64,000 nt of DNA, taken from Krischvirus LF73P4. Shown one piece after another: positions 8,824 to 46,920 of this stretch. Position numbers and translations under genes: made by a program. How positions within the stretch are numbered: position 1 is the first letter of the stretch; each line of letters starts with the position of its first letter. The notes beneath the pieces are model-generated. The model did not search any database. It was not told where the DNA came from and was given only the letters and a program-made list of their open reading frames with translations. The stretch lies in sequence record OZ035795.1; one strand, 5' to 3'.

Positions 8824-10410
8824 ATGAAAACTACCAAAGAACTGATGGAAAAATGGTCCCCGCTGCTGGAGAACGAAAAACTGCCGGAAATCGCAACTGC
8901 GTCTAAGCAGAAACTGGTTGCTAAAATTCTGGAATCTCAGGAAGCGGATTTTGCTGTAGACCCGATCTATAAGGATGAAAAAGTTGTTGAAGCATTCGGT
9001 GGCTTTATCGCAGAAGCCGAAGTTGCTGGCGACCACGGTTATGATGCATCTCACATCGCGGCTGGTCAGACTACTGGCGCAATCACTAACGTAGGTCCGG
9101 CTGTTATCGGTATGGTTCGCCGTGCTATCCCTAACCTGATCGCATTTGATATTTGTGGCGTTCAGCCGATGAGCACTCCGACTAGCCAGATCTTTGCAAT
9201 CCGTTCTGTATATGGTGCTGATCCGCTGAAATCTGGTGCTCGCGAAGCATTCCATCCGATGTATGCACCTGATGCGTTCCATAGCTCTCTTGCTGCTAAA
9301 GATGCAACGACTGTTTCTCCTACTGGTACTGCATTCGCTAAACTAACTCTGCAAACTGCAATTCAGGCTGGCGATATTGTACACCACACCTTCGCAGAAA
9401 CTGGTATTGCATATCTGCAAAACGTTACCTCAGATGCAGTAACCCCAGCCAAAGCTGGCAGCGAGTCAGAAGATGAAGTTGTCATGAAGCTGATGGAAGA
9501 AGGTAAACTGGCTGAAATCGCTTTCGGTATGGCTACTTCCATTGCCGAAATTCAGGAAGGCTTTAACGGTTCCAGCAATAACCCGTGGGCTGAAATGTCA
9601 ATGCGTATTGACAAACAGGTTGTTGAAGCGAAATCTCGCCAACTGAAAGCCCGTTACTCTATCGAAGTTGCGCAGGATCTGCGTGCTGTACACGGTATGG
9701 ATGCTGACGCTGAACTGAATGCTATCTTGGCTAACGAAGTTCTGCTGGAAATCAACCGTGAAATCGTTGACGTCATCAACTTTACCGCTCAGGTTGGTAA
9801 GACTGGTATGACTCAGACCGTTGGTTCTAAAGCTGGTGTATTTGACCTGCAAGACCCGATCGATACTCGCGGTGCTCGTTGGGCTGGTGAATCCTTCAAA
9901 TCTCTGATCTACCAGATCGACAAAGAAGCTGCTGAAATCGCTCGTCAGACTGGTCGCGGTGCGGGTAACTTTGTTATCGCTTCCCGTAACGTTGTAAACA
10001 TCCTGGCTTCTGCTGATCAGGGTATCAGTCTTGCTATGCAGGGTGCTGCAAAAGGTCTGAATACCGACACCACTAAGGCTGTTTTCGCTGGTGTTCTGGC
10101 TGGTAAGTACAAAGTGTTCATCGACCAGTATGCTCGTCAAGACTACTTCACCGTAGGTTACAAAGGCGACAACGAAATGGATGCTGGTATCTACTATGCT
10201 CCGTATGTTGCTCTGACTCCGCTGCGTGCAACTGACCCGCAGTCTTTCCACCCGGTTCTGGGCTTCAAGACTCGCTATGGCATCGGCATTAACCCGTTTG
10301 CAGACAGCAAATCCCAGGCACCGTCCGCTCGCATCACCTCCGGTATGTTGAGCAAAGACAGCGTAGGTAAAAACGCATACTTCCGTCGTGTATGGGTTAA
10401 AGGTTGCTAA
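8824..10410 (+). CDS. 23: major capsid protein
   Basis: 528 aa; late promoter 8783-8790; strong terminator downstream; T4 gp23 size and position. Confidence 0.95.
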   Translation: MKTTKELMEKWSPLLENEKLPEIATASKQKLVAKILESQEADFAVDPIYKDEKVVEAFGGFIAEAEVAGDHGYDASHIAAGQTTGAITNVGPAVIGMVRRAIPNLIAFDICGVQPMSTPTSQIFAIRSVYGADPLKSGAREAFHPMYAPDAFHSSLAAKDATTVSPTGTAFAKLTLQTAIQAGDIVHHTFAETGIAYLQNVTSDAVTPAKAGSESEDEVVMKLMEEGKLAEIAFGMATSIAEIQEGFNGSSNNPWAEMSMRIDKQVVEAKSRQLKARYSIEVAQDLRAVHGMDADAELNAILANEVLLEINREIVDVINFTAQVGKTGMTQTVGSKAGVFDLQDPIDTRGARWAGESFKSLIYQIDKEAAEIARQTGRGAGNFVIASRNVVNILASADQGISLAMQGAAKGLNTDTTKAVFAGVLAGKYKVFIDQYARQDYFTVGYKGDNEMDAGIYYAPYVALTPLRATDPQSFHPVLGFKTRYGIGINPFADSKSQAPSARITSGMLSKDSVGKNAYFRRVWVKGC

Positions 10411-11005: not shown

Positions 11006-11013
11006 TATAAATA
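11006..11013 (+). promoter_or_regulatory. T4-type late promoter TATAAATA
   Basis: Exact match 38 nt upstream of the gene 24 start. Confidence 0.6.
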
Positions 11014-11050: not shown

Positions 11051-12292
11051 ATGACTCATATTTTTACTGAACTGTTGCGGGAATCTACTTCCTCAGTAGC
11101 TAACCAGACAGCGCGACCGCAACTATTATCATTAACTCGCGCGGTAAACAACCTGATTTTCTCTGATCTGGTAGCAATCCAGCCAACGGATCAACCAGTA
11201 TCTGCATTGTACGGCCTACGTTATCTTAATCGTGATGGTCAGATGACTTTCCGAACTGCTGCGACCTACGGTGGCGCGGCTGGTGATCGCACAGAGATTG
11301 AAGAGTTTTCAAAAGAAAAATCTTATGACGAAGGCGCACTGTTCAAATCAGGCGATGTTGTATACGAAGTTGTGACCGCTGGTACAGTCGGTGAAGATGC
11401 CGAAACTCCAGAAGCTGCGATCTTTAAAGGCGTAATGACAAACAAAATTCGTTTCTATAGCGATTGTGCATCGGTAGAATACTTTGAAGATAAAAACACC
11501 GAAATTTCGTCTACCTCTATGCAGTTTGATAAGTGGCAAGTTAATGTAGGTTCTCGTAAACTGAAAACCTCGTTCACCACTGAATTAATGCAGGATCTTG
11601 AGGCAAGCCAAATCAACTCTGAAAACTCTGTAATTGATCTTCTGGCTACTGTTGCTTCCGAAGAGATCAACAAAGATATTATTCAGAAGTTGATCACTGT
11701 ATCATCTCGCTATAAAATTAAAGGGATCACCCCTGATGGCGTACTTTCTCTCGTTAGCGTTCAGGATGCACCAAAACAAGCGCGTGAACTTTACCGCTAT
11801 GCTTGCGAAATGAGCAATCAAATGTTGCGGACTTCCTCCTTTGCTGGTACATACGTTTTGGCGTCTTCTCGCGTGGTTGGCCTCCTGCAATCTACCGGAT
11901 GGATGGAAGAAACCGACAATGCTCTAAGCGAAGGTCGTCTACGTTGCGGTCTGGAAGTGTACGCAGACACGACAACACCTTTCGATTATATGCTCGTTGG
12001 TTGTAAGCACATGATCGGTGATATGGAGAGTGTAGGTTCTCTGTTCTACTCCCCATATACAGAAGCCGACGGCGCTGGCGCGTATAAGAGCGTAATTGAC
12101 CCTAATAGCTTCCAGCATCATGTAGCTATTATGAATCGTTATTCACTCTCTGTCAACCCATATACATCAAAAGTTGATCAGGAAGAACACCAGGTCATCA
12201 AGGGTGACGATTGGGGTAAAATGGCTGGACGTTCAGAAATGTCCTACATTTTAGGAATCGAACTGCCACCGCTTGAGATTGACAACGCTTAA
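11051..12292 (+). CDS. 24: capsid vertex protein
   Basis: Start moved to internal ATG (MTHIFTELLRES) that aligns with recalled T4 gp24 N-terminus; TATAAATA at 11006-11013. Confidence 0.9.
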   Translation: MTHIFTELLRESTSSVANQTARPQLLSLTRAVNNLIFSDLVAIQPTDQPVSALYGLRYLNRDGQMTFRTAATYGGAAGDRTEIEEFSKEKSYDEGALFKSGDVVYEVVTAGTVGEDAETPEAAIFKGVMTNKIRFYSDCASVEYFEDKNTEISSTSMQFDKWQVNVGSRKLKTSFTTELMQDLEASQINSENSVIDLLATVASEEINKDIIQKLITVSSRYKIKGITPDGVLSLVSVQDAPKQARELYRYACEMSNQMLRTSSFAGTYVLASSRVVGLLQSTGWMEETDNALSEGRLRCGLEVYADTTTPFDYMLVGCKHMIGDMESVGSLFYSPYTEADGAGAYKSVIDPNSFQHHVAIMNRYSLSVNPYTSKVDQEEHQVIKGDDWGKMAGRSEMSYILGIELPPLEIDNA

Positions 12293-12880
12293 CTAAATAT
12301 CTAACCAAGACAAGTCAGATCCGCCCAAGATTTTTTCGACGGCGGATCTATTTTCTTGATGATATAAGTTAAAACATGGTATCCCATGTCTACGGGCAAC
12401 ATAAACAGCAATTCTAGTTCCTCCAGAAACAATCCCATTAACTTCTTTCGCCCAAAATAACACACAATCTACAGGATCATCAAGTGTCTCACCTAAGACT
12501 TGAGCAACATTTCTAGAAAACAGATTTTGCATGTATAACGGTATAGAACGAGGATTATCATAAACGTGTTCTAATTCATCCATCGCCAGATTTTTTTGTT
12601 CTAAGGTTTGCCATGCAATCACATCATGACCGTTATGCTTGTGGTCATAAAACTTCCAATTTGGAATGAAAATTTTTCTATAATCTGGATCGTAATACTT
12701 CATGAAAGCATTGTCCATACCGTAAGCCCCTCCAGAATGCGCTACAACGCGATTTTCTGACAATACCCTCCCAATGGTACTAGCCATTATCAAAATGTCG
12801 CTAGGCGCTTTTCTAGAGCCGATTAAAGCACATCTACGAAGTGGTTTTACTCCAAATAGATCTTGTAACTGGTCAAACAT
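12293..12880 (-). CDS. SLOG-superfamily (DprA/Smf-LOG-like) Rossmann-fold protein
   Basis: Motifs GSRKAP..SGGAYGMD and VSGGTRIA resemble DprA/LOG glycine-rich loops; GGAGG RBS; occupies the T4 rnlB position. Confidence 0.55.
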   Translation of the reverse strand: MFDQLQDLFGVKPLRRCALIGSRKAPSDILIMASTIGRVLSENRVVAHSGGAYGMDNAFMKYYDPDYRKIFIPNWKFYDHKHNGHDVIAWQTLEQKNLAMDELEHVYDNPRSIPLYMQNLFSRNVAQVLGETLDDPVDCVLFWAKEVNGIVSGGTRIAVYVARRHGIPCFNLYHQENRSAVEKILGGSDLSWLDI

Positions 12881-12905
12881 AATATTTCCTCCATAGAAAG
12901 CAATA

Positions 12906-12934
12906 TCATACTACAAGTTAATAACAAATACAAG
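12906..12934 (-). promoter_or_regulatory. sigma70-like early promoter
   Basis: Minus strand TTGTAT-17-TATGAT upstream of the SLOG gene. Confidence 0.4.
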
Positions 12935-13000
12935 TATCCGCGTAGCGGAAGCGAGCACAGCGAGCAATAAAACACTTCCAGTAATTGATTAATAAATGTT

Positions 13001-13060
13001 CGAAACAAATTTTTATTATTCTATAAGATAAGTCTTCGTTTTGATCATAATTTCATCATA
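13001..13060. repeat. intergenic repeat, copy A
   Basis: cgaaacaaatttttattattctataagat..tcttcgttttgatcat; imperfect copy of B and C. Confidence 0.6.
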
Positions 13061-13156
13061 CATGTAAAAACTACACAAAAGGATATCGCTTCGCGAACTC
13101 CTACGGAGTATAACATTTGTGTTACAATATGTAGTGATTAATAATTAACCAAAGAT

Positions 13157-13225
13157 ACATTTTCTATGTTCTAAAGATCTTTCTTCGTTTTGGTCATAAT
13201 TTAATCAAACAGTATTAATATTGTG
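13157..13225. repeat. intergenic repeat, copy B
   Basis: ttctaaagatctttcttcgttttggtcataattt; core palindrome AAAGATCTTT. Confidence 0.6.
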
Positions 13226-13259
13226 CACATGTAAACTAAAATTATGTTAATAACAGATA

Positions 13260-13286
13260 CAAAAAAGCCGCCCACAAGGACGGCTA
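13260..13286 (-). terminator. rho-independent terminator (minus strand)
   Basis: AGCCGCC/GGACGGCT stem with flanking A-run on plus (T-run on minus). Confidence 0.5.
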
Positions 13287-13293
13287 ATGTTAA

Positions 13294-13731
13294 TTATTTG
13301 TTGATAACGATCTGATTTCGGCGAATGGTAACATTACTCTTAGAGATGATCAGATCATCCGGCACTACGTTAGTTTTGTATGGTTGGAATCGAACAAGCA
13401 TCTGATTGCGTTTAGACCCTTCCTTAATCTTGATTTCCATCTGGATATTGTTGCCTACGTGAGCAACCGCAATTTCACCTTTATTCTCATAGACCCACTT
13501 GCTGGTAACGTCTCCAGCAAAAGCCTTAATAACTTGCAATGCTTCGTCGTATGCGGTAGAGCTGTGAACTTTCAGAAGTCCAGCCGTAGCAAGACGGGAG
13601 CAGGTGATCGCCGGAGATTGCCAAACATCAACATTAATTTGCTCAATCAGAGTAACACCGCCCTGGTCAACTGCTTTGAATGCTTCGAACATTGCCTTTT
13701 TCATTGCTACGTGGTTTTTACGGAATTTCAT
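13294..13731 (-). CDS. hypothetical protein
   Basis: 145-aa ORF with GAGGTGA RBS and downstream terminator. Confidence 0.5.
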   Translation of the reverse strand: MKFRKNHVAMKKAMFEAFKAVDQGGVTLIEQINVDVWQSPAITCSRLATAGLLKVHSSTAYDEALQVIKAFAGDVTSKWVYENKGEIAVAHVGNNIQMEIKIKEGSKRNQMLVRFQPYKTNVVPDDLIISKSNVTIRRNQIVINK

Positions 13732-13777
13732 AATTAGTCACCTCTATTGATTAGTTATTCAGAATATTAATTACAAA

Positions 13778-14053
13778 TCAGGACATTGCCCGTTTGAATG
13801 CGTCCATTATAACAGTGTTATTTGGCATGTCAACACGTTTTTGAACTTTATTTTTAATTTTTTTGTTGATGTGGTGTTTACGATAAACAACCTTTTCACG
13901 GCTGGCGTAAGCCTCTCGTGCATCTTTTACCATCAACCATGCCTTAGCCGCATCTTGTCCGCTGATCCCGCCAATCTTTTTAGCAATATCAACAAAATTA
14001 AGACCGTGGTCTTCGCGTAGCATGTAAACCATTAACGCTGTTTTCTTGTCCAT
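13778..14053 (-). CDS. hypothetical protein, possible helix-turn-helix
   Basis: ORF trimmed to internal ATG that overlaps the upstream stop (ATGA); segment LNFVDIAKKIGGISGQDAAKAW looks HTH-like. Confidence 0.4.
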   Translation of the reverse strand: MDKKTALMVYMLREDHGLNFVDIAKKIGGISGQDAAKAWLMVKDAREAYASREKVVYRKHHINKKIKNKVQKRVDMPNNTVIMDAFKRAMS

Positions 14054-14250
14054 CACTTCGCCCCATTGACGATTAACAGGATAGTGATCAGTACCGGAAA
14101 CTGGATCATGACAGTACCAAAAAACCGGATAAACGCATTTTCCGACTTCCACACATGACATGCGACTAGCTGATAGACCATTGTTGCAACCAAAGCCAGA
14201 AAATACATCTCGATTGGTGTTTCGTTGATCAATCGTACAATCTCATTCAT
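14053..14250 (-). CDS. small membrane protein
   Basis: 65 aa, hydrophobic; GAGGTGA RBS; sigma70-like promoter upstream. Confidence 0.4.
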   Translation of the reverse strand: MNEIVRLINETPIEMYFLALVATMVYQLVACHVWKSENAFIRFFGTVMIQFPVLITILLIVNGAK

Positions 14251-14364
14251 ACTTCACCTCATACATTCATAAACACAACAACGAATAATACAGTAACAGT
14301 TATTAAAGCCATTTTCAACCCCATATTCATAATATTTTCTTCGCCTCACTATGACAGTAGCATG

Positions 14365-14404
14365 TCGATGCGTGCCATTATAGGCATCTAAATCGCTCTG
14401 TCAA
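14365..14404 (-). promoter_or_regulatory. sigma70-like early promoter
   Basis: Minus strand TTGACA-16-TATAAT just after the hoc terminator. Confidence 0.5.
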
Positions 14405-14409
14405 GCACT

Positions 14410-14441
14410 AAAAACAAAAAAGCCACCCCGAAGGATGGCTG
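14410..14441 (-). terminator. rho-independent terminator after hoc
   Basis: AGCCACC-loop-GGATGGCT stem with A-run on plus. Confidence 0.55.
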
Positions 14442-14451
14442 ATAGATTTCA

Positions 14452-15666
14452 TTAAGCAGGATGCGTTTCACGAATGCGTAGAACTCGCTCTAACGTATCT
14501 CGGTCCAGTTTATGTAACTCTTTGGAATGATACATGAAACCATTGCGAGATTCCATGCAAGTGCAATCACTATATTTTTCTTCCGCTGCCGCGATTGTCT
14601 CCAGATCTTTGGCGTACTTGCTGGTAGAATAAACTTCTCGGTCACGCCACTCTAACCCAGCCTCATTGAATTTAACAATCTCGTCAAATACCCACCATCC
14701 AATGTAGATAAATGAAGTTTTGCGCCACGGGATCGGGTGTACGTAACGAAACATTTTAACAACTTCCATTGAACATTTTCTACTTGTACTTGTTGCAACT
14801 TCTACTGTTTCATCTTCGATCTGTTGATATAGTTTAGCAACACACCAGAATTTGGCTGTGTCATCGTAAGTAGCACTCTCTTTGAACAGATGACCGTCTG
14901 GAGTGATAGAAAATCCTTCCAGTGCTTCGCCGTCCTCACTACCGATTAGAGTCGGTGACAGTTGCCCTTCGCGCTGCAAATACCAGTTATGTTTGATCGT
15001 CAATTCAGGCATACCGCTAGAATCGCCTACAATGTCCTCTGACACGACATAATTAAGTAAGATCTCATTACCTAGTGCCACGGTCTTTGATTCCACTACA
15101 TCCTGATCTACGTTCATTGTTGCCAGCATGATTTTAGTCGATGCGCTATCGGCTGAATCTTCCGACTCACCCCACACTTTTACAGTATACACGCCGTTTT
15201 TATCTGCTGTAAATTTTTGGATCGTAATATCCTGTGTTGTGTCTATAACGTCTTCGCCCTTACTCCAACTATAATGTAGTTCATAGTTGTCTGCTGGAGT
15301 CTTCCCACCAGAAAATTTTACTGTTGCATGTAATTCTACGTCTGTTTGTGATGATACGTAGAAATGCTGCGGTTCGGTGATATTTACGATTAATTCAGCT
15401 TCTTCCATGAGGAAAACTTCAGATTCTACTGATTCCATCGTATCGGTATCCTGTACCGTTACTTTATAGCTACCCGCATTTTCACTTGTTGCACCTACTA
15501 CAGATAGCGTAGCTGTGCTATTTTCATGTGGTTGGTCGTCTTTTGTCCATGTATATGTCAAATTGCTGGGTAATGGTTCGTCACCCGATACAGTCGCCGT
15601 TAAGGTGAAACCATCGCCAGCAAGAAAACATCTTTTGTCAGATTTAATTGATACTGTGAAAGCCAT
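14452..15666 (-). CDS. hoc: Hoc outer capsid decoration protein
   Basis: 404 aa; Ig-like N-terminal repeats; C-terminus YVHPIPW..IGWWVFDEI matches recalled T4 Hoc capsid-binding region. Confidence 0.88.
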   Translation of the reverse strand: MAFTVSIKSDKRCFLAGDGFTLTATVSGDEPLPSNLTYTWTKDDQPHENSTATLSVVGATSENAGSYKVTVQDTDTMESVESEVFLMEEAELIVNITEPQHFYVSSQTDVELHATVKFSGGKTPADNYELHYSWSKGEDVIDTTQDITIQKFTADKNGVYTVKVWGESEDSADSASTKIMLATMNVDQDVVESKTVALGNEILLNYVVSEDIVGDSSGMPELTIKHNWYLQREGQLSPTLIGSEDGEALEGFSITPDGHLFKESATYDDTAKFWCVAKLYQQIEDETVEVATSTSRKCSMEVVKMFRYVHPIPWRKTSFIYIGWWVFDEIVKFNEAGLEWRDREVYSTSKYAKDLETIAAAEEKYSDCTCMESRNGFMYHSKELHKLDRDTLERVLRIRETHPA

Positions 15667-15835
15667 ATAAAGCCACTCCCATAGAAAATCCGAATTTAAT
15701 TAATTGAAATAGTTGATTGCCATCAACCAGATAACCATTGCGAGATTCCAATACATGAGTATTAGAATAGTGATGCAACGAGGCCGAAATAGTATCGATC
15801 TCGTCTGGGTATTTGTTCTGTTTGATGTAATACAT
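15644..15835 (-). pseudogene. ORF carrying a Hoc C-terminal-like fragment, possible duplication remnant
   Basis: Contains ESRNGY, as in Hoc ESRNGF; no RBS in this frame; GAGGA RBS serves a different, 29-codon frame. Confidence 0.25.
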
Positions 15836-15931
15836 TGATTTTGTTAGACATGTAGTATCCTCTTTTTAATTGCATAACGGAACTACAATTAAAATTATAA
15901 CAAATATTTCACAACTTTTATCACCCAAAAA

Positions 15932-16657
15932 TTACTTGAGTATGTGGAATTGGCTATGTTTAGTCTCTCGCACCTTGACAGACCCATCGCGTTTGATATA
16001 ATAGATCAGTGACTTGAGGGTGTCGTGTACATACGCGTGCGGGAAACGCTCTGGATACTTCTTCCAATCTGGAGTATTAACGATCCAGTCGAAAATCCAC
16101 CACGGGCAGGAGTAGTAACCACGACCGCCACCGATCAAGCAAATGGTCGGACGGAAGCCAGTAAGATCGCAAAATGAATCAGTGTCATGTGCTGGGGAAC
16201 GATGCTCTGCTTCGTTAGAGAAAATGTTGGCTACCGGAGATTCCACTTTAACTTCCAGTGCTTCTTCAACATCTGACTTAACTTCTTCGACCACTGGTTC
16301 AACTGCTGGAGATTCTTCTTTTGTTTCTTCAATGACGATCTCAGGTTCTTTCATTGCTTCAACCAGAGACGGATCAACTTCGTCGAATACCACTTTATCA
16401 TCTGCGGTGTCTGCTGCCAGAATAAGATCGTTAATACTGGTTCCTTCTGCCGGAGTTTCTTCTTCCATTTCGGAAGCCAGTTTAGTTAATTCGGTTTCTA
16501 CGAACTCGATCATGTTCTCTAACGAGAGCGTCTTTTTGACCTTAATATCAAATTGTTTTGCGTAGTCCGCTAATTCTGTTTTAGCGGCTTTCTGTGCTTC
16601 TTTGTCGTCGGACTCCGCAATAGCGCGGAGTTCTCCGAAATATTCTTTATCAAACAT
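15932..16657 (-). CDS. Hoc-paralogous protein: acidic N-terminus plus Hoc-like C-terminal domain
   Basis: C-terminal PWWIFDWIV and DTL..VRETKH align with Hoc GWWVFDEIV and DTLERV..IRETH; sits where T4 has inh. Confidence 0.55.
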   Translation of the reverse strand: MFDKEYFGELRAIAESDDKEAQKAAKTELADYAKQFDIKVKKTLSLENMIEFVETELTKLASEMEEETPAEGTSINDLILAADTADDKVVFDEVDPSLVEAMKEPEIVIEETKEESPAVEPVVEEVKSDVEEALEVKVESPVANIFSNEAEHRSPAHDTDSFCDLTGFRPTICLIGGGRGYYSCPWWIFDWIVNTPDWKKYPERFPHAYVHDTLKSLIYYIKRDGSVKVRETKHSQFHILK

Positions 16658-37296: not shown

Positions 37297-37608
37297 TTAA
37301 AGTTTTTCCATGATAACGGTCATAATTACATCTTCTGCGCGAGCGGTCAGATTATCAGCGTCAGCATGTGGGCGGTTGGTTGTTACAGAGATAACACCGT
37401 TGCGCACTGGTTTGATATTGATATCAAGATGATCCGCGAAACGTTCGCCAGTTACAGAATGAATTTTGGTGTTAAATTCTTTTGCCAGTGCCTTGCGAAC
37501 TTCACGAATCAGGGTAGCGTTTTTCAGTTGGTTCTCCGCGCTCATGGTCTTCTGAGTGTTCATGGTTCCGTCGAAGTCAATCATTGGCAGCGTTACGATG
37601 TATTTCAT
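37297..37608 (-). CDS. hypothetical protein
   Basis: 103 aa; PeSL upstream. Confidence 0.5.
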   Translation of the reverse strand: MKYIVTLPMIDFDGTMNTQKTMSAENQLKNATLIREVRKALAKEFNTKIHSVTGERFADHLDINIKPVRNGVISVTTNRPHADADNLTARAEDVIMTVIMEKL

Positions 37609-37688
37609 TTTTGATTCTCCTTAAGAAAGTGTGTTTCGTTTTGATGTGTGTAGTATAGGGGATCACCGATCCCCTGTCAACAACTTTT
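37609..37688 (-). promoter_or_regulatory. PeSL-type early promoter/stem-loop cassette
   Basis: TTGACA, spacer palindrome GGGGATCGGTGATCCCC, TATACT. Confidence 0.6.
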
Positions 37689-38018
37689 TTATGATTTTAG
37701 TGAATTAACCACTACATCAAAATGATGTACAGAGCACACCTTATTAAACACATATTCATCGTGTTTAGGAATAGCCCCTAATCGCTCGATTTCGCTCGCT
37801 GACACGATAAACCGTTTATCAGGTGCATTTACCTTATATGCTTCAACAACGCACGGAAAACGCGTTTTAGAGAGTTCGGGATAGTTTTCTGACTCCATCA
37901 GGACAATGAATACCCTATTACATTGATTGTAGAATCCGGTTTTTGATTTCATCAAGTTTTCTTCTCTGTGAAATTCGTGCAATCTTCCTTTCATGATTTC
38001 GTTGGTTCTTGTCTTCAC
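37689..38018 (-). CDS. hypothetical protein (start uncertain)
   Basis: Track ORF overlaps the upstream gene by about 100 nt; true start is probably an internal ATG. Confidence 0.35.
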   Translation of the reverse strand: MKTRTNEIMKGRLHEFHREENLMKSKTGFYNQCNRVFIVLMESENYPELSKTRFPCVVEAYKVNAPDKRFIVSASEIERLGAIPKHDEYVFNKVCSVHHFDVVVNSLKS

Positions 38019-38259
38019 AGTTTACCCACTCAACAAGGTCTTTGCCTAACTCGAAAGCCCATTCTCGGTCCTGCTTTACGTTTTGTAGGTATGGACTTTC
38101 CGACACTCGACGAAGTGATCTTGTCGTAACAAGAATGATCCCAGGAATGTTCGGATGTTCCTTTCCATATACAATAGGACGCGAGTCACTATCAATACCC
38201 TGTAAGAAGGTGTATCCTGAATCACTTAGGATCATATACATTTTCATTTCATCCATCAC
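37918..38259 (-). CDS. hypothetical protein
   Basis: 113 aa. Confidence 0.45.
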   Translation of the reverse strand: MMDEMKMYMILSDSGYTFLQGIDSDSRPIVYGKEHPNIPGIILVTTRSLRRVSESPYLQNVKQDREWAFELGKDLVEWVNCEDKNQRNHERKIARISQRRKLDEIKNRILQSM

Positions 38260-38516
38260 AGTTTCCTCAACCAGTTATTAAAGCGAGTAAACCATGATGC
38301 TTTTCGTGCTTCTTCTTCGGCTTTGCACGCACGCAAACCACTGAAACACCATTCATAATCATCACTGAAACATGATTCAACAGGAACACCCGCATTTCGT
38401 AGTTCTCTGGTCTTTATCATGAATCCTTGACATAAGGGGCGACCTTCAACAATGATAGGAAGTTTAACTTTTTCCATGAAAGTATACCCAGCACGGTCAA
38501 TAATTTCAATTTTCAT
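38256..38516 (-). CDS. hypothetical protein (paralog of 39762..39983)
   Basis: N-terminal pattern II..AG..FM..K.P.I.E shared with the second copy. Confidence 0.45.
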   Translation of the reverse strand: MKIEIIDRAGYTFMEKVKLPIIVEGRPLCQGFMIKTRELRNAGVPVESCFSDDYEWCFSGLRACKAEEEARKASWFTRFNNWLRKL

Positions 38517-38760
38517 TTACATTATCTCCATAGATCTTTCCATCAATATCAATTTCACCAGCGCGAACATCTAGGATAAGATGTGGTAGGTGTATGCAGT
38601 TTTCCCACCCTACGCGCTTCATTTCTTCTACGGTAACGTAAGCCCACCCGTTCGCTGTAATAAAGTCTACTTCAACCTTGAGAGGAAAGCAAGACTTTTC
38701 TATGTCTTCGAATCCGACAATATGTTTTGTTGTTGAATATGGAATATATCCGGTGATCAT
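38506..38760 (-). CDS. hypothetical protein
   Basis: 84 aa; overlapping operon. Confidence 0.45.
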   Translation of the reverse strand: MITGYIPYSTTKHIVGFEDIEKSCFPLKVEVDFITANGWAYVTVEEMKRVGWENCIHLPHLILDVRAGEIDIDGKIYGDNVNEN

Positions 38761-39218
38761 TTTGTGATCTCCTTATACTCAACACACCATAAGCGGGTAG
38801 CCCATGATAAACGCTCATAACGCTGGCAGAAATCGGACCATAGATATTGTGTACCGTCTTGCATGGTTGAAATATGCGTTTTCTCTCCAACTTTCACGAA
38901 AGAAGTATTCGATTTTGTGATCTCGACCGGAGTATATCCGAAAGCGGGTTCCAACTCAACATCTGAACTAAATGCCAATTTAACAGAATTTGTTTTTCTG
39001 ACCGCTGTCCGGTTTCCTTCTGGGTACAGCACAGCAGGTTTAGCGCCTAAGCGGATAAACTCAGTATTTTTAATGAACAGAATATCATGATAACCGTCAT
39101 ATTCCGACACTTCCATAGTAACAGGAAAATCGACATGTGCTAAACCTGGTAGATCTCGCATATCATGAAATGTAGCCATAATCTTTTTCATTCTATATTC
39201 CTCACTCTTCTGTTTCAT
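38757..39218 (-). CDS. hypothetical protein
   Basis: 153 aa. Confidence 0.45.
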   Translation of the reverse strand: MKQKSEEYRMKKIMATFHDMRDLPGLAHVDFPVTMEVSEYDGYHDILFIKNTEFIRLGAKPAVLYPEGNRTAVRKTNSVKLAFSSDVELEPAFGYTPVEITKSNTSFVKVGEKTHISTMQDGTQYLWSDFCQRYERLSWATRLWCVEYKEITK

Positions 39219-39438
39219 TTCTTTTATATGGTACTATAACAGGATTAATACAGCAAGCACCAATTACGTTATGAGCACCACAATTTAAGCATTTATAATC
39301 ATGGAACTTATTAAGGAATCGCCCGAACTCATAACCGACTAACGCCGCGTGTACTTGAGTCTCGATCTCATCCATATCAGCCAATGTTTTAACCTTCATA
39401 ATATAATCCTCAAATACTGGTTTTGCGAAGATGGTCAT
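39202..39438 (-). CDS. Cys-rich small protein
   Basis: CLNCGAH..GACC. Confidence 0.4.
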   Translation of the reverse strand: MTIFAKPVFEDYIMKVKTLADMDEIETQVHAALVGYEFGRFLNKFHDYKCLNCGAHNVIGACCINPVIVPYKRNETEE

Positions 39439-39700
39439 TACATGCTTTTAATGCATCAGTCGAGGTGTCATAGCGAGTATTATCATAGCACCAATAACCA
39501 TCTGTCAACTGATAAATTAATCCATCCTTTTTAGCGTCGATGAAAGACAATTCTTTGAAAGTTTCTACTTTCTTTGCTGATACTCCACGGTCACGGCGTT
39601 TATAGAGTTTAGCTAAAATGCGTTCAGCTTGTTCCTCTTTATCGCCAGACAGATCCCAGATGATGTTTCTGATATGCTTGATTAATTGTTCAGTGGTCAT
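39410..39700 (-). CDS. hypothetical protein
   Basis: 96 aa; PeSL upstream. Confidence 0.45.
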   Translation of the reverse strand: MTTEQLIKHIRNIIWDLSGDKEEQAERILAKLYKRRDRGVSAKKVETFKELSFIDAKKDGLIYQLTDGYWCYDNTRYDTSTDALKACNDHLRKTSI

Positions 39701-39761
39701 ATTTGATTCTCCTTAGTTGGTATGGTTATCATTATACGGGGATTTCTCCCCGTGTCAACAA
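39701..39761 (-). promoter_or_regulatory. PeSL-type early promoter/stem-loop cassette
   Basis: TTGACA, spacer palindrome GGGGAGAAATCCCC, TATAAT. Confidence 0.55.
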
Positions 39762-39983
39762 TTAAATGATCTCTGCTTCACCGTTAAGGAAGAAAGACCA
39801 TGTTTTGTTAGGATAACGAAGCGCCCACGATTCAGCAGTTTTAACACCAGCTTCGAACAATTGACGGCTGGTTACTTTAGCCATACCATCTTCGATGGCA
39901 ACGTTTTCAATAATCATCGGGTACTTAGCGCCACGCATGAAACCGAAGCCAGCGGAAGATTTGATAATTTTAACAGTTGCCAT
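39762..39983 (-). CDS. hypothetical protein (paralog of 38256..38516)
   Basis: Trimmed to MATVKII after the conserved leader. Confidence 0.45.
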   Translation of the reverse strand: MATVKIIKSSAGFGFMRGAKYPMIIENVAIEDGMAKVTSRQLFEAGVKTAESWALRYPNKTWSFFLNGEAEII

Positions 39984-40070
39984 TTTTGATTCTCCTAGAA
40001 AGTGTCGTGTTTCGATGGGTGTATTATGCAATAACACCGGATCGCTGTCAACACTTTCTAAGAAAAATTT
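39984..40070 (-). promoter_or_regulatory. PeSL-type early promoter cassette
   Basis: TTGACA-17-CATAAT; conserved leader. Confidence 0.55.
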
Positions 40071-40355
40071 TTAAACTAATCGAATATAGCCCAGAATTTC
40101 AGCACCTTTAGCCAGTCCTAAAACTTCCCATTCAAGGTCGCCGTAGTCATAATTTGCAACCATCAACTGACCATTTTTCATGCAGCAATCATGAGAGAAA
40201 ATTTGCCCCGCATAAACTACGATAGTAATAAACTTTCCTGATTCTGGCGGTGTGGAAGACAAAGCGACCATATGACCATTCAGCTTAGTAACCAGTGATG
40301 GAACAATAAAATTCGGGCTTACCTTAATACCGTTAAATTCGTTTGTGTCTTTCAT
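40071..40355 (-). CDS. hypothetical protein
   Basis: 94 aa. Confidence 0.45.
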   Translation of the reverse strand: MKDTNEFNGIKVSPNFIVPSLVTKLNGHMVALSSTPPESGKFITIVVYAGQIFSHDCCMKNGQLMVANYDYGDLEWEVLGLAKGAEILGYIRLV

Positions 40356-40702
40356 GCCAGACCTCGCAAAACACTAATAGCATAATCATGCTGGTTATTC
40401 ATAATATCAATTGCATTGTGATAACGAGCTAAACCATCAAGGATAAATTCTTGTTTATCCTGTTTCAGTTTGGTATCACGCGCAGCCATAAGAGCATCAA
40501 GAACAGGTCCAAAGTGATTATCTAATTCATCTTCGGTTGCAATGTTTCCTATTGCCTCGTCGATCCGTGATTCTAATGCTTGCTTTTCGTTGATCACTTG
40601 CTGGGTATATTCCAACACATCAAGAATATCGCGGGTAACGTCGCCATGATAAGGTATTCCCGCATGAAGATGATCAATTAATCGCTGAATATCAATGTTC
40701 AT
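40352..40702 (-). CDS. hypothetical protein
   Basis: 116 aa. Confidence 0.45.
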   Translation of the reverse strand: MNIDIQRLIDHLHAGIPYHGDVTRDILDVLEYTQQVINEKQALESRIDEAIGNIATEDELDNHFGPVLDALMAARDTKLKQDKQEFILDGLARYHNAIDIMNNQHDYAISVLRGLA

Positions 40703-41037
40703 TTGTAACCCTCCTCTGAAAGCACATCCCAGATCGTTGAGTCAAGGTGCATTAAATTCCACATAATAGAGTCATAACTACCGAAGCCAGAAGTAAAAAT
40801 TACATCACACTGGCGATAGGTCTTATGAAAATCGGTGGCTGTCTCTGCATCAATCGGCATATCGTCACCTGAAAGCACCAGACATTTAAGAATCATAACT
40901 CTGTTAGCCGTTGGCGCTTGCTTAGTCTTTTCAGCATATTTTTCGATGATCCGTTTTGCCTTTTCTTCTTTGATACGTCCAGACCAAATCCGGTTTCGGT
41001 ATTGATTCATAATAATTTCAATCACATCATTTTGCAT
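40699..41037 (-). CDS. hypothetical protein
   Basis: 112 aa. Confidence 0.45.
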   Translation of the reverse strand: MQNDVIEIIMNQYRNRIWSGRIKEEKAKRIIEKYAEKTKQAPTANRVMILKCLVLSGDDMPIDAETATDFHKTYRQCDVIFTSGFGSYDSIMWNLMHLDSTIWDVLSEEGYK

Positions 41038-41236
41038 TCTTCACGGTCTCCATAATTGTTTTGTAAGCCAGCTTAAGATGATCACCGAAAAACTTTGCAG
41101 TGTTACCCTTCGGATCGCGAAGCATGGTTTCTACGATCTCATCGGCAGTAACAATTTCTCCTTTCTTTGCTGCATGTTCTACCATATACTTCAAAGTTTC
41201 TTCGGAGGCAAGTGCTGCGGCTACTGGATTAATCAT
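41027..41236 (-). CDS. hypothetical protein
   Basis: 69 aa; PeSL upstream. Confidence 0.45.
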   Translation of the reverse strand: MINPVAAALASEETLKYMVEHAAKKGEIVTADEIVETMLRDPKGNTAKFFGDHLKLAYKTIMETVKNAK

Positions 41237-41300
41237 TTTGGTTCTCCTTTGTTGTCGATGTGTGCATTATGCTATACCCTATTCCGGTTGTCAACACCTA
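41237..41300 (-). promoter_or_regulatory. PeSL-type early promoter cassette
   Basis: TTGACA-17-CATAAT; leader GGAGAACCAAA-ATG. Confidence 0.55.
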
Positions 41301-41304
41301 AAAA

Positions 41305-41336
41305 CGAAAAAGCCACCCTTTCGGATGGCTTTTTGA
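41305..41336 (-). terminator. bidirectional-looking terminator
   Basis: AGCCACCC-tttc-GGATGGCT flanked by A-run and T-run. Confidence 0.6.
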
Positions 41337-41564
41337 TTATATTTTATTCACGTCCATTTGTATAGTAGTGTTTGAATCGACCTTTGCTAAACTAGTTAAA
41401 CATAGTAACCAATTCACCATCCCTTTCCAATGATAACCCTTCCTCGTCTTAGACGGGTCTTCCGATTCGGCAGTAATTGAACACGCGAAAGTATGAGGAA
41501 GCCAAATGGTTGTGTTAATGCTAGTTTTCTTTTACTTCTGATATGTATCCCACGGTGACTAACA

Positions 41565-41963
41565 TTAAGCCAGTCGAGTGAGTTTATAAATTGTTTTAAA
41601 GCATAGAGCTTTGATATCGTCTAAAACGCTCTGTAACGAGCTATCAACATCATTATAAATCTCACTAGCCATTTGCGTTAACTCTTGCAAATAGGCAATT
41701 TCGCTAATCTCCTTGCGGACGACCAACTTTGGCTGATAACGACCAGTGATCCCAATATTGGTTTCAGTGAAATTATCAACCAATTCTTGCATTTCAAGAT
41801 AGAACTCTTCTAGAGCCTTATGTTTTGCATAAGATCCAGGACCAGTTACCCCAAAATGCGCAGAATGCATATAAGTAACACTCATCAGACATTCACCGAT
41901 AAAGCGGTCAACTTTATTAGCCTTTCCCTCTTCGGACGTCTTTAGAAAATCACTGAATTTCAT
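41565..41963 (-). CDS. Dps-like ferritin-fold protein
   Basis: Start at MKFSDF after GGAGAA; HSAHF..KHKALEEF..VDNFTE gives H-x11-H-x14-D-x3-E, the spacing of the Dps ferroxidase ligands. Confidence 0.55.
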   Translation of the reverse strand: MKFSDFLKTSEEGKANKVDRFIGECLMSVTYMHSAHFGVTGPGSYAKHKALEEFYLEMQELVDNFTETNIGITGRYQPKLVVRKEISEIAYLQELTQMASEIYNDVDSSLQSVLDDIKALCFKTIYKLTRLA

Positions 41964-42252
41964 GTTCTCGATTCTCCATATTATGCAACAGAACAAATTG
42001 TTGTGCGGCATATCCCCCCATAATAAAACACTGCCTAGAATCCATACATTTACTACGAGCATACATCTTCATAATATGGGCATGAAATTTCTGGCTGGTT
42101 TCAATGGAAGGAGATATTTTGTTTACATATACTATCATTGCGCCGTCGAAATAATCAGTAAAGTCACCAGTTGGATCATATTGATCAGCACTGACACTTC
42201 CGACCGCAGTCAAGCATATTGCCGCTGTTAGAGTTTTACGAATAAATGACAT
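41950..42252 (-). CDS. small secreted protein
   Basis: Signal-peptide-like N-terminus MSFIRKTLTAAICLTAVGSVSA. Confidence 0.45.
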   Translation of the reverse strand: MSFIRKTLTAAICLTAVGSVSADQYDPTGDFTDYFDGAMIVYVNKISPSIETSQKFHAHIMKMYARSKCMDSRQCFIMGGYAAQQFVLLHNMENREHEIQ

Positions 42253-42320
42253 AAGTCATTCCCCCAGATTGAAAATATTCAGTTATATTTATAATCTGGG
42301 GCTTTATTTATGATTAACTC

Positions 42321-42917
42321 TTATTTGGTAGTACCGTCAATAAAATGTTTACGGCACACAGAAACATATTTATCCTCTGCACCAACTTCGATTTGAGCAC
42401 CATCGCGAATAACATTACCCTCTTTATCTACACGAAGGACCATTGTTGCTTTCTTGCCACAATGACAAATACCCTTCATTTCGACCAGTTTATCAGCAAA
42501 TGCCATTAATGCCGCAGATCCTTCAAATAGATTGCCCTGAAAGTCAGTGCGAAGGCCATAGCACAGTACAGGGATATTAGCATCATCAACAAGCGCACAC
42601 AAGCCTAAAACATGCTCTTTAGTCATAAATTGGGCTTCATCTACAAATACTGCATCTGGACGCCATCGATCCGGTCTACGCTTACCTAACGATTCACGAT
42701 AAACCAAATCGAAAAGATCATCCGATTTAGTGAAGGTGATCGCTGGGGCACTTAGGCCAATTCGGGAAACGACTTCACTTTCTGAATCTCGATTATCAAT
42801 CGCTGGCTTAAGAATTAATACTCGCATATCACGTTCGGTATAGTTATAAGCACTTTGTAACAGAGAAGTTGATTTGCCAGCGTTCATAGATGCATAGTAG
42901 AAATATAATTGCGCCAT
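42321..42917 (-). CDS. tk: thymidine kinase
   Basis: P-loop MNAGKST; FVDEAQF; CHCGKKA; collinear with recalled T4 Tk. Confidence 0.93.
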   Translation of the reverse strand: MAQLYFYYASMNAGKSTSLLQSAYNYTERDMRVLILKPAIDNRDSESEVVSRIGLSAPAITFTKSDDLFDLVYRESLGKRRPDRWRPDAVFVDEAQFMTKEHVLGLCALVDDANIPVLCYGLRTDFQGNLFEGSAALMAFADKLVEMKGICHCGKKATMVLRVDKEGNVIRDGAQIEVGAEDKYVSVCRKHFIDGTTK

Positions 42918-43210
42918 TAATTAATCTCCAAAAATCCAACAAGGCCTAAACCGATATAAGTCCAGATACCAATGAAAAAGATGTTAATGCTCATGGCAAG
43001 GATAAACCCTTTCAGAGTTTTGGGATACCCGACCCAATATTCCCGACCATCTTCTAACCGGATCAACTTATTGCCTTGCGAGTCCATATCAACTACAACA
43101 TGTTTATTTCGAGATTGCAATAGATATTGTTTTACAATCTCTACACCCGCCATAATAACAATAACGAAAATAAAAGTCCACACAACAAGATTAATGATAG
43201 TCTCAAGCAT
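42917..43210 (-). CDS. small membrane protein
   Basis: Two hydrophobic segments. Confidence 0.45.
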   Translation of the reverse strand: MLETIINLVVWTFIFVIVIMAGVEIVKQYLLQSRNKHVVVDMDSQGNKLIRLEDGREYWVGYPKTLKGFILAMSINIFFIGIWTYIGLGLVGFLEIN

Positions 43211-43457
43211 TTTCTATCACCTCCACCCAATCAGGTGTTTCCTGAAAGACTCCTTCACCTTCATGATGGTCGCAACCTTTATTGCTACAGTACATCCACC
43301 AATCCCACATTCCCCACGGTAAACGCTGCATATCGTCGTTACAGCAAGTGAAGATGATAGGCCAACCACATCTACCACATCGGCAGTTTTCCTTCATGTG
43401 TGCGCTATTAGGCTTCATATTCAACCACCACAATATTGATATCCGGCGTAAAATCAT
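43203..43457 (-). CDS. Cys/Trp-rich zinc-finger-like protein
   Basis: CRCGRCGW..CC..C..C..H pattern. Confidence 0.4.
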   Translation of the reverse strand: MILRRISILWWLNMKPNSAHMKENCRCGRCGWPIIFTCCNDDMQRLPWGMWDWWMYCSNKGCDHHEGEGVFQETPDWVEVIENA

Positions 43458-43863
43458 TAATAATTTCTTCTACGCATTCCCACTCAAGACCGCCAATCCC
43501 ACAACCAATTTTAGGAATATAGAACGGCTTAACAGTACCTTCAAATGCGGAGTTAAGTTGTTCGAATCCACGGATGATAGCGGAATATTCAGCATTTGGT
43601 CCTGGACGGAATTGCGTATAAAGATTAATACCCATCCAGTTATAACCATTAACGGTATGATGCCAAACATTAAACTCGCCTAGCTTACTCGCCGTTCCTC
43701 TCGGTGTCTTTTTGTCAGTAGCCAATGCTTGCGGGAACTCTTTCGCGATCTTCGCAGCAATACCAGCACCCATAGTATGAAAACAATTACAACCATGAAT
43801 TAAATGACCGTTTCCTTGTTTAAACAGGGCGATGAGATCGCCCTTTACAGTATCAATAATCAT
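43408..43863 (-). CDS. macro-domain protein (ADP-ribose binding/hydrolase)
   Basis: GCNCFHTMGAGIAAKI and IGCGIGGL resemble macro-domain glycine-rich loops. Confidence 0.6.
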   Translation of the reverse strand: MIIDTVKGDLIALFKQGNGHLIHGCNCFHTMGAGIAAKIAKEFPQALATDKKTPRGTASKLGEFNVWHHTVNGYNWMGINLYTQFRPGPNAEYSAIIRGFEQLNSAFEGTVKPFYIPKIGCGIGGLEWECVEEIINDFTPDINIVVVEYEA

Positions 43864-43878
43864 AATATAAACCTCTCA

Positions 43879-44238
43879 TTAGTCACGGGAAGACAACCCA
43901 GCCATAAAACGGCTTAACAGTGTGTCGCGATAAGCAAAGCATAATTGCTTATCAGGGGCAGTATCACAAAGGTTGCGTTTTGTTTTAGCAAAGCTGGCAA
44001 TACTCAGATCCCACGCTCGATTTTTTCGTTTTTCATCTCGACCTTGTTTGTATGCTTCATCAAGTTCGAGCGCGATAAAATCACTACACATGTTATCATC
44101 ATCACAGAAAGTTTTAATGATCTTTTTGTTGATCTCAAATCCTTTGTATTCGAACTTTGGATAAGGGCGCTCATTACTAGCAAGCGCACCAGCCGAGAAC
44201 ATCATAGCAATCATAGCAATTATTGTCAACTTTTTCAT
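43879..44238 (-). CDS. secreted Cys-containing protein
   Basis: Signal-peptide-like N-terminus. Confidence 0.45.
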   Translation of the reverse strand: MKKLTIIAMIAMMFSAGALASNERPYPKFEYKGFEINKKIIKTFCDDDNMCSDFIALELDEAYKQGRDEKRKNRAWDLSIASFAKTKRNLCDTAPDKQLCFAYRDTLLSRFMAGLSSRD

Positions 44239-44245
44239 ATATTCC

Positions 44246-44836
44246 TCAATAGCGTTTAGTCTTAAGAATGCCTTTACTCTTTAGATGGTTAGCCTTTTTT
44301 AGTACATCATCAGCATAACCTAACCCGGCTTTATAGTTCCATCCAGCATTGTAAGAAGCTAGCGCGAGTCGGATATTACCGTTTCGAACATCCAGCCAGT
44401 ATGCTAACTCATCCATCGCGTAGAATGCAGAAACCTCGCGATTCATGATAAAGTTGATAGTCTGGCGATCACTCATTTTAACACCGCGCTTTGCATTTTT
44501 CGCTTTCACCGTTTTAAGGTAATTTTGAAATAATCCATAAGCATGATGATTTTTCTTTGGTGCTAAGTTTGCACCCGCGCTTGATTCTTGCCATGCGATA
44601 CCCGCCAGGATGTGACCTAAACCCTTTCCGTTATAGCGAATATTCGGATGGTCCTTTTTCAACTTACCGCTTTTCTCGAATTGCTCGCCGTATTGATAGG
44701 CGAAATGTAAATTATCTAGTTGGTGTGCTGTAAAGTTGTCTATCGGCGCTTTTTTGATCGGTGCGCTAGTCGATGCGTGTGTAGCACCAACGGCTAGTGA
44801 CAGACTCAATACTATCGCTTTTAGAACTTTTAACAT
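44246..44836 (-). CDS. secreted lytic transglycosylase (SLT domain)
   Basis: Signal peptide; GIAWQESS catalytic-Glu motif; YNAG. Confidence 0.65.
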   Translation of the reverse strand: MLKVLKAIVLSLSLAVGATHASTSAPIKKAPIDNFTAHQLDNLHFAYQYGEQFEKSGKLKKDHPNIRYNGKGLGHILAGIAWQESSAGANLAPKKNHHAYGLFQNYLKTVKAKNAKRGVKMSDRQTINFIMNREVSAFYAMDELAYWLDVRNGNIRLALASYNAGWNYKAGLGYADDVLKKANHLKSKGILKTKRY

Positions 44837-44869
44837 TAATTTCTCCTGTTTGGCTTAACTTTCTGATTC

Positions 44870-44905
44870 CATAATATAGCCCTATCACCAGAAAGTCAAG
44901 CATTA
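44870..44905 (-). promoter_or_regulatory. possible sigma70-like promoter
   Basis: Minus strand TTGACT..TATATT upstream of the transglycosylase gene. Confidence 0.3.
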
Positions 44906-44922
44906 TTTTTAACCAATTTCCA

Positions 44923-45345: not shown

Positions 45346-45349
45346 TTTA

Positions 45350-45685: not shown

Positions 45686-45745
45686 TTTAATACTCCTTTG
45701 TTGTTTCGATGGGGGTATATTACTACCCCCGATCATGGGTGTCAA
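45686..45745 (-). promoter_or_regulatory. PeSL-type early promoter/stem-loop cassette
   Basis: TTGACA-17-TAATAT; hairpin GGGGGTAGTAATATACCCCC. Confidence 0.55.
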
Positions 45746-46182: not shown

Positions 46183-46203
46183 TTTCTTAATCTCCTATAT
46201 TAA

Positions 46204-46902: not shown

Positions 46903-46920
46903 AATTAAACCCTCAGTTGA

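Follow-up and report, generated by a model that had tools for sequence, protein, structure and literature searches.

A DprA-like protein gene and a repeated, genus-specific hairpin element between gene 24 and hoc in a Krischvirus genome

The 64,000-nucleotide stretch of Krischvirus LF73P4 DNA analyzed here (sequence record OZ035795.1; "the window") carries, between gene 24 and hoc, a minus-strand open reading frame (ORF) for a DprA-like protein, and upstream of it a long non-coding spacer that contains a direct repeat. The protein is a single-domain member of the SLOG superfamily, and the repeat consists of two copies of an undescribed, genus-specific hairpin cassette that is present four times per genome. 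We consider it about an even chance that the gene and the spacer are two independent features that are neighbours by chance, the one encoding a DprA-type protein that binds single-stranded DNA (ssDNA) and the other acting in cis through its hairpins. The region from 12000 to 14300 is matched at 90–99% identity by 58 published phage genomes, 57 of them at 95% or more, all of which are RB49/phi1/JSE-type coliphages of the genus Krischvirus.

The coding assignment made in the initial annotation holds, as the ORF encodes 195 residues from an ATG start preceded by a GGAGG ribosome-binding site. That annotation had also tied its SLOG assignment to the finding of a profile match, and profiles of the DprA type do match. 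The PHROG 768 "DprA-like" profile covers the full length of the protein (E 2e-60, 204.6 bits, residues 15–187 on profile positions 4–181 of 191), and a profile of the family matches DprA chains at 2e-5. Of the two Pfam families that had been proposed for comparison, DprA (PF02481) is matched at E 8.3e-5, below its gathering threshold, while LOG (PF03641) gives no match at E<=1. An AlphaFold2 model of the protein (pLDDT 84, pTM 0.84), in which about 25 residues at 75–100 form a low-confidence segment, shows the Rossmann-like fold, the glycine-rich loops after strands 1–2 and before the C-terminal helix, and the structural likeness to known members that are expected of the SLOG superfamily. Together these data support DprA as the closest SLOG branch, an assignment that is already in the public annotation, where RefSeq uses the name "DprA-like DNA recombination-mediator protein". 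The family is large. Of about 50,700 phage records, with hosts from many genera, 1,428 contain it by tblastn, and an exhaustive profile search returned 4,315 family representatives at E<=0.001 among 50%-identity representatives, most of them stand-alone proteins of about 180 residues; a word-indexed protein search returned just 6 matches, so that the size of the family becomes apparent only with the exhaustive search.

The conserved residues of the family coincide with the motifs of the DprA pocket. In an alignment of 80 diverse members the invariant or near-invariant residues are G21-S-R23, S49-G-G-A-x-G-x-D56, L120-x-x-R123-N124, Q127 and G153-G-T155; G21, R23 and R123 are invariant and N124 is present in at least 90%. 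Wang et al. gave G-S/T/A-R and F/L/Y-x-x-R-N/D as the signature motifs of the ssDNA-binding DprA domain, and PGGxGTxxE as the signature of LOG proteins (PMC3950713). In Helicobacter pylori DprA motif 1 is G50-R52, in a loop between a strand and a helix, and motif 2 is F140-N144, in a helix (PMC3950713). The phage protein has G21-S22-R23 in the loop between strand 16–20 and helix 27–42 of the model, and the family profile aligns these residues with G50-T-R52 of H. pylori DprA. It also has L120-F-S-R123-N124 within helix 115–129, the equivalence with motif 2 being one of pattern and secondary structure rather than of residue-level superposition. In the DprA-like antitoxin ShosA the equivalents of DprA R52 and R143, which are R139 and R234, are needed for ssDNA binding (PMC12961424). 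The glycine-rich loops reported in the initial annotation are present as SGGAYGMD (49–56) and SGGT (152–155) and are invariant across the family; bacterial DprA shares both the SGGAxGxD loop and a GG(T/S) loop, whose glycine contacts a base in the H. pylori protein. As far as its sequence can show, then, the protein appears to work like a DprA domain.

Comparison with DprA/Smf (PF02481, TIGR00732), the recombination mediator of bacterial natural transformation, also brings out what weighs against this reading. The Pfam score is 22.3 bits against a gathering threshold of 29.6 and spans residues 15–60 only, and the TIGR00732 equivalog model gives 14.4 bits against a cut-off of 191. Likeness to DprA at the sequence level is confined to about the first 50 residues, and overall identity is about 20%. 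Both ssDNA-pocket motifs are shared, but the third DprA arginine, R170, has no conserved counterpart in the PHROG 768 protein, which also carries an insertion of about ten residues between the helix with the RN pair and the GGT loop. The 195 residues make up one Rossmann domain and no other Pfam domain, so the SAM domain and the C-terminal winged helix (DML1/Z-alpha) of DprA are absent, and no Pfam family covers the protein. PHROG 768 proteins are, in addition, encoded by virulent phages. Because both curated thresholds are failed and the SAM and C-terminal domains are missing, the protein is not a DprA orthologue.

The genes found next to other members of the family point towards the handling of ssDNA. 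The DprA-like gene adjoins SSB in phage flopper, has an ATP-dependent DNA ligase on one side and a helicase on the other in PAK_P5, lies in Vibrio phage phi 3 within a split NAD-dependent ligase and next to the replicative helicase, and shares one block with RNA ligase 2 in the T4-type phages Serratia phage PS2 and Slopekvirus. Within the 150 top-ranking representatives of the family, fusions occur to NADAR (n=5), to the exonuclease RecJ (n=1) and to DUF4326 (n=1), the other extensions being uncharacterised PHROGs. Taken together, the ligases, helicases and SSB among the neighbours and the fusion partners favour ssDNA handling over nucleotide hydrolysis, although the NADAR and DUF4326 fusions would suit an ADP-ribose or nucleotide ligand equally well. 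We propose that the protein is a stand-alone DprA-type Rossmann domain whose likeliest activity would be to bind ssDNA through the DprA base pocket, and that within the replication, recombination and repair network of the phage it would probably protect ssDNA, hand it over, or recruit a partner enzyme to it.

Guanine in DNA is freed of ADP-ribose by NADAR enzymes, T4 gp30.3 among them (PMC11125620). Outside the window a gp30.3 gene of the NADAR family lies beside the DNA ligase gene gp30 in the close relative JSE (NC_012740, 129349–129828) and is noteworthy in view of the recurrent NADAR fusions of the DprA-like family elsewhere; Krischvirus also encodes the ADP-ribosyltransferases Alt and ModB. 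In the representative library two proteins of 1475 and 1488 residues (P0017 and P0019) combine three different SLOG domains, of the PHROG 768, YAcAr and LDcluster4 types, with a C-terminal NADAR domain.

The initial annotation had placed the protein among those that bind or process nucleotides and act in defence or counter-defence. In its fullest form this idea makes the SLOG protein a counter-defence sponge or hydrolase, which would bind or cleave either a nucleotide or a signal derived from nicotinamide adenine dinucleotide (NAD), such as adenosine monophosphate, ADP-ribose derivatives or cyclic nucleotides. Fusion to NADAR and DUF4326, both of them domains associated with NAD and ADP-ribose, agrees with it, and so does the position of the Slopekvirus copy, which has a nicotinamide phosphoribosyltransferase gene about 1.3 kb away. 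The processing part lacks support, since PF03641 is not matched and the PGGxGTxxE motif with its catalytic glutamate is missing, the corresponding sequence being V-S-G-G-T-R-I-A-V; a nucleotide hydrolase of LOG type is therefore less likely than an ssDNA-binding protein, whose motifs are the ones actually conserved. Matches to PADLOC models are marginal and span only 45 residues, and the neighbouring genes are those of replication and repair rather than anti-defence clusters. For the defence part there is one precedent, ORF83 of the virulent coliphage DruSM1, which is needed to overcome AVAST type III (bioRxiv 10.1101/2024.04.14.589459) and is alone among phage SLOG proteins in having a counter-defence phenotype. 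We traced ORF83 to PP596835 through the deletion primers listed in the supplement of that paper. Like the protein studied here it is a small stand-alone SLOG protein, and both families occur fused to DUF4326 and NADAR, but it belongs to another family (130 residues, YAcAr, PF10686 at 66.7 bits, PHROG 289) and its hhalign probability against the DprA-like family is 0.8%, while the DprA-like protein has no match to PF10686 in Pfam and hence no sign of YAcAr/YspA membership. ORF83 was rejected as a functional precedent; it says nothing direct about the function of the DprA-like protein, and the link to counter-defence remains an analogy because the two families have no detectable similarity. A counter-defence role is possible, but the combination of nucleotide processing and counter-defence is less likely than ssDNA binding and we regard it as unlikely.

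A more specific proposal is that the protein replaces the unstable DprA-like antitoxins ShosA and PsyrA after host shut-off and so prevents abortive infection. ShosA counters ShosT indirectly, through ssDNA binding and RecA (PMC11961720, PMC12961424), and a stand-alone ssDNA-binding DprA domain could in principle act in the same way; the best PADLOC matches, though weak, are to PsyrA (4e-5) and ShosA (4e-4). These matches fall short of PADLOC assignment to ShosA or PsyrA (20.8 and 17.9 bits over about 45 residues) and reflect the generic N-terminal DprA motif alone, at residues 15–61. The SAM domain of ShosA and the C-terminal degron helix of the ShosTA and PsyrTA antitoxins are absent, the adjacent genes are gene 24 and the phrog_15652 ORF with no toxin gene of the PRTase or RecQ-like kind, and a family present in 1,428 phage records from very different hosts is distributed more widely than expected for a mimic of one system. 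Mimicry of this kind is very improbable. Broader possibilities, to which we attach a low probability, are that the protein is a counter-defence factor directed at ssDNA, that the hairpin element represents a new class of cis-acting module, or both. Such a protein could, for example, act with the NADAR protein gp30.3 as a guide for stripping phage ssDNA of ADP-ribose, or could neutralise systems of the ShosTA and PsyrTA type.

The spacer upstream of the gene was described in the initial annotation as a 413-bp non-coding region, and this is borne out: it contains no ORF longer than 53 residues and none in common with a divergent relative, which also disposes of a hidden small gene. It has 30% G+C, against 41% for the window, and going by the JSE feature tables the equivalent spacer is the second longest intergenic gap in that genome. 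Along the transcribed minus strand it consists of an intrinsic terminator, hairpin element copy B, two GC-rich mini-hairpins, copy A, a conserved GC-rich block with a further mini-hairpin, and the ribosome-binding site (Table 1). The spacer is not a decayed gene, as tblastn with proteins of T4, PS2 and Slopekvirus found no remnant of rnlB or of neighbouring genes (best E only 0.2), and it holds no known RNA family, the sole Rfam match within 12700–13500 being a chance snoRNA at E 2.6.

The direct repeats are real and there are two of them, but with gaps allowed they extend over about 85 nucleotides (nt) per copy, more than the roughly 60 bp first suggested. The best ungapped pair is identical at 32 of 38 positions (13025–13062 against 13174–13211, at a spacing of 149), a number that none of 500 dinucleotide-preserving shuffles reached (mean 22.5, standard deviation 1.0, maximum 26). 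The palindrome AAAGATCTTT that had been assigned to the repeats is present in one copy only, the plus strand of the other reading AAGATAAGTC. A third copy, upstream of gene 3, came to light when the spacer was compared with the window by BLAST, and in JSE there is a fourth, upstream of gene 36. A covariance model built from eight copies finds exactly these four in the JSE genome, whereas none was found by it in the searched loci from T4, PS2, Slopekvirus, PAK_P5, phi 3 and flopper. A wider occurrence was rejected after an exact 22-mer scan of IMG/VR, which gave just two Krischvirus-like contigs. The two copies at genes 3 and 36 share about 97% identity along some 110 nt and directly precede the late promoters TAATAAATA and TATAAATA. 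Every copy is oriented with its downstream gene. The initial annotation, which proposed the repeat as bait for protein binding, implied a connection between repeat and protein; this finds no support, as the element also precedes genes 3 and 36 and was not found at the five searched PHROG 768 loci of other phages.

Each copy is a long, interrupted inverted repeat with an outer 7-bp stem (TGATTAA/TTAATCA) and an inner stem of 7–14 bp, which enclose 25–31 AT-rich bases with a box resembling a promoter -10 hexamer. Two metagenomic relatives provided the critical test of conservation. One of them (L020) has diverged to 57% identity in the DprA-like protein and to about 40% at 4-fold synonymous sites, yet its spacer has 404 nt, is 60% identical, and contains the terminator, both element copies and the hairpins in the same order. 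The inner arms in L020 differ in sequence and still pair, ATCAAACGTCAT with ATGACGTTTGAT. In the alignment of all eight copies 84.5% of the cells pair, against 24–46% when the partners are slid by 1–3 columns; seven of the 21 pairs are changed on both sides, and the covariation score was reached by none of 500 shuffles. The fold is more stable than that of shuffled sequence in five of six copies (z -2.6 to -5.8).

Most likely the element would act in cis on the expression of the downstream gene, as a structured RNA, as a weak regulated promoter, or as both, a cis-acting RNA hairpin or a promoter/operator cassette being the most likely identities. As RNA, the element would govern the processing or stability of transcripts that continue past the terminator. 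The common orientation of all copies with their downstream genes argues for a role at the RNA level, as do the arms, which differ among copies of a single genome and pair nevertheless, and the excess of G.U cells (14) over A.C cells (6) on the sense strand. Other observations count against it. Copy A is no more stable in its fold than shuffled sequence (z +0.6), read-through may be small given the apparent strength of the terminator, and a working -10-like box would start transcripts inside the hairpin, which would make the RNA stem impossible. The structure was also derived from the same eight sequences that tested it, and these represent three lineages only and include paralogous copies.

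The same sequences can be read at the DNA level, each element then being a weak promoter of the sigma-70 type (xTGAyC, 17–18 nt, TAnAAT) and the inverted repeat an operator for a dimeric regulator of phage or host, so that the DprA-like gene would be served by two regulated promoters in tandem within the spacer. In all eight copies the -35-like and -10-like boxes occupy the same positions and are 17–18 nt apart, with a perfect TATAAT in the divergent lineage L020; no other promoter is recognisable between the strong terminator and the DprA-like gene; and early transcripts of gene 1 and 57A, which begin 15 nt beyond gene 3, could arise from the copy upstream of gene 3. The hexamers are nevertheless poor, with three or four of six matches in the -35 box and TAGAAC as the -10 box of copy B, and a consensus scan does not report them. 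Nor do the differing, pairing arms within one genome suit recognition by a single protein as well as they suit base-pairing, and the excess of G.U over A.C cells points the same way. The box is confined, in 166 kb, to the four element copies and one chance match, and with no further copies found by the covariance model a genome-wide promoter class comparable to the T4 middle promoters was rejected. We consider this DNA-level reading possible but less likely than not. The minus strand of the spacer contains neither a consensus sigma-70 promoter nor a T4-type late promoter (TATAAATA), and a late promoter for the DprA-like gene was rejected, as TATAAATA is absent from the minus strand between 12.9 and 42 kb. 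Finally, the spacer could be functionless, the decaying debris of recombination or duplication between regulatory cassettes in a plastic part of the genome. The interval from gene 24 to hoc is a known variable region that bears promoter-early stem-loop cassettes, or PeSLs (PMC2839356), copy A is degenerate and folds like shuffled sequence, and elements of this kind clearly recombine or confuse assemblers. Decay would hardly have preserved the length (413 against 404 nt), the order of the parts and both copies in a lineage with near-saturated synonymous sites, or have produced compensatory changes in the arms, and T4-type genomes are otherwise tightly packed; we consider it improbable.

PeSLs, described for RB49 and phi1 (Arbiol et al. 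2010, PMC2839356), are among the closest known counterparts of the element, which is not mentioned in that paper or in a second one on PeSLs. Both are short, composite, repeated intergenic cassettes between a terminator and a gene, and both are long enough for recombination. The element differs in having no near-consensus TTGACA-N17-TATAAT promoter, in its stem, which is a long, AT-rich, interrupted hairpin and not a G(n)-loop-C(n) terminator, and in occurring only four times, with two copies directly upstream of late promoters (genes 3 and 36). A PeSL is made up of a GC-rich terminator stem-loop, then an AT-rich tract and a near-consensus sigma-70 promoter. The repeats of the spacer were accordingly rejected as PeSLs, since the terminator at 13285–13266 is present but is followed on the minus strand by no promoter with at least 9 of 12 matches. 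This terminator does resemble the stem-loop at 14421–14440, which is part of a PeSL-type cassette.

A different parallel is offered by the early mRNAs of T7-type phages, which carry intercistronic RNase III processing hairpins of about 20 bp, interrupted, with two stems and an internal loop and oriented with transcription. The element is likewise an interrupted hairpin of about 20 bp between cistrons that is oriented with transcription, but its apical region has 25–31 AT-rich nt in place of a small loop. A comparable dependence of T4-type phages on RNase III is not known. If the element does represent a new class of cis-acting module in RB49-type phages, it could serve in RNA processing or stability, or could combine a promoter with an unwinding region and act as a replication origin. 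The three loci of the element lie near the positions of oriF, oriE and oriG in T4.

At the copies of genes 3 and 36 the equivalents of the two adjacent GC-rich mini-hairpins have different stems (GTGCC-TxC-GGCAC), and in L020 the sequence is ATGCC-GATA-GGCAT. The heptamer GCGAAGC recurs in these mini-hairpins downstream of the element in both lineages (window 13086–13096, JSE upstream of gene 36, L020 at about 3760), and the gene 3 copy has GCAAAGC in its place. GCGAAGC forms an unusually stable DNA mini-hairpin with a GAA loop.

Table 1. Positions of the DprA-like gene, the parts of its upstream spacer and neighbouring or related features in the window
Feature	Positions	Strand	Remarks
Gene 23	8824–10410	+	
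Gene 24	11003/11051–12292	+	Abuts the DprA-like ORF
DprA-like ORF	12293–12880	-	PHROG 768 member; single-domain DprA-type SLOG/Rossmann protein, 195 residues
Shine-Dalgarno sequence GGAGG	12888–12892	-	7 nt before ATG; read from the sequence; GAGG here in L020
Non-coding spacer	12881–13293		413 nt, between the phrog_15652 ORF and the DprA-like gene
17-nt repeat TTGTATNTGTTATTAAC	12917–12933	-	Second copy at 13246–13262; 16 of 17 identical; a GC hairpin precedes each
Mini-hairpin TCCGC-TAC-GCGGA ending block TTGCTCGCTGTGCTCGCTT	12937–12949	-	Flagged as terminator-like; 6-bp version in L020
Best-conserved spacer block TTGCTCGCTGTGCTCGCTT	12937–12976	-	38 of 53 aligned positions match L020
Hairpin element copy A	12979–13063	-	Covariance model 80.5 bits; fold z +0.6; more degenerate, no palindrome
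Two adjacent GC-rich mini-hairpins	13086–13109	-	ACTCC-GTA-GGAGT and TCGC-GAA-GCGA; 3-nt loops; then a T-rich run
Hairpin element copy B	13128–13212	-	Covariance model 88.7 bits; fold z -2.6; palindrome AAAGATCTTT at 13173–13182
Intrinsic terminator closing the upstream operon	13266–13285	-	8-bp stem, then TTTTTT; compensatory stem changes in L020
phrog_15652 ORF	13294–13731	-	
24.3-like DUF2774 ORF, then hoc, inh, uvsW			Beyond the phrog_15652 ORF
Third element copy	56771–56855	-	Upstream of gene 3 (56125–56715); 85.2 bits; inside the second rearrangement junction

The location of the gene corresponds to that of rnlB in T4, as the initial annotation stated. T4 has the order 24(+), rnlB(-), 24.2, 24.3, hoc, inh, and rnlB, which is convergent with gene 24, occupies exactly the same slot. 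No homologue of Rnl2 was found anywhere in JSE by tblastn. One block of genes holds both rnlB and the DprA-like gene in Serratia phage PS2 and in Slopekvirus, so the two genes are best regarded as neighbours lost by different lineages and not as replacements of one another.

Several features of the surrounding genes are worth recording. The ORF of gene 24 as called by the program begins at a TTG at 11003, but a late promoter (TATAAATA) lies at 11006–11013 and the product annotated in JSE has 413 residues, so the real start is the ATG at about 11051. The stop codons of gene 24 and of the DprA-like gene abut at 12290–12295 with zero bases and no terminator between them, and transcripts of each gene would therefore run antisense into the other. 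The genes hoc and inh (14452–16657, minus strand) are presumably late, yet TATAAATA is absent from the minus strand from 12.9 to 42 kb. Two perfect TTGACA-16-TATAAT promoters are found on the minus strand upstream of the spacer, at 14404–14377 and 13833–13806. The former comes after the terminator stem-loop at 14421–14440, and the two together (14377–14440) make up a classic PeSL; the latter, likewise a PeSL-type site, falls within the 3' end of the 24.3-like ORF, from where it would serve the phrog_15652 ORF.

The window as a whole is not collinear with any of the 58 published relatives. Positions 1–37690 correspond to JSE 89125–127044, positions 37605–56851 to JSE 44907–65561, and positions 56743–64000, reversed, to JSE 152500–145246. 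Neither junction (37605–37690 and 56743–56851) occurs in one piece in any of the 58 Krischvirus records, and each falls within a repeat (85 and 108 bp). At the first junction the repeat holds a near-consensus sigma-70 promoter (TTGACA-17-TATACT, 37652–37680, minus strand) and is for that reason assigned to the PeSL-type early-promoter repeats, while the second junction lies in the hairpin element. The rearrangement is either an assembly chimera or the result of real recombination between repeats. An inversion between the inverted element copies of genes 3 and 36 would give exactly the second junction, and a circle or duplication between direct repeats would give the first. Being near-identical and inverted, the copies at genes 3 and 36 may drive large inversions of the genome.

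Neither the protein nor the element overturns the current understanding of these phages. PHROG 768 is among the more widespread phage families whose function is so far only predicted; retention of the DprA pocket, absence of the LOG motif and the company of ligases, helicases, SSB and NADAR provide a concrete hypothesis that is cheap to test. The hairpin element is a second kind of repeated intergenic cassette in RB49-type genomes, beside the PeSLs, and its length and conservation are sufficient to mislead assemblers or mediate rearrangements, the window being a case in point.

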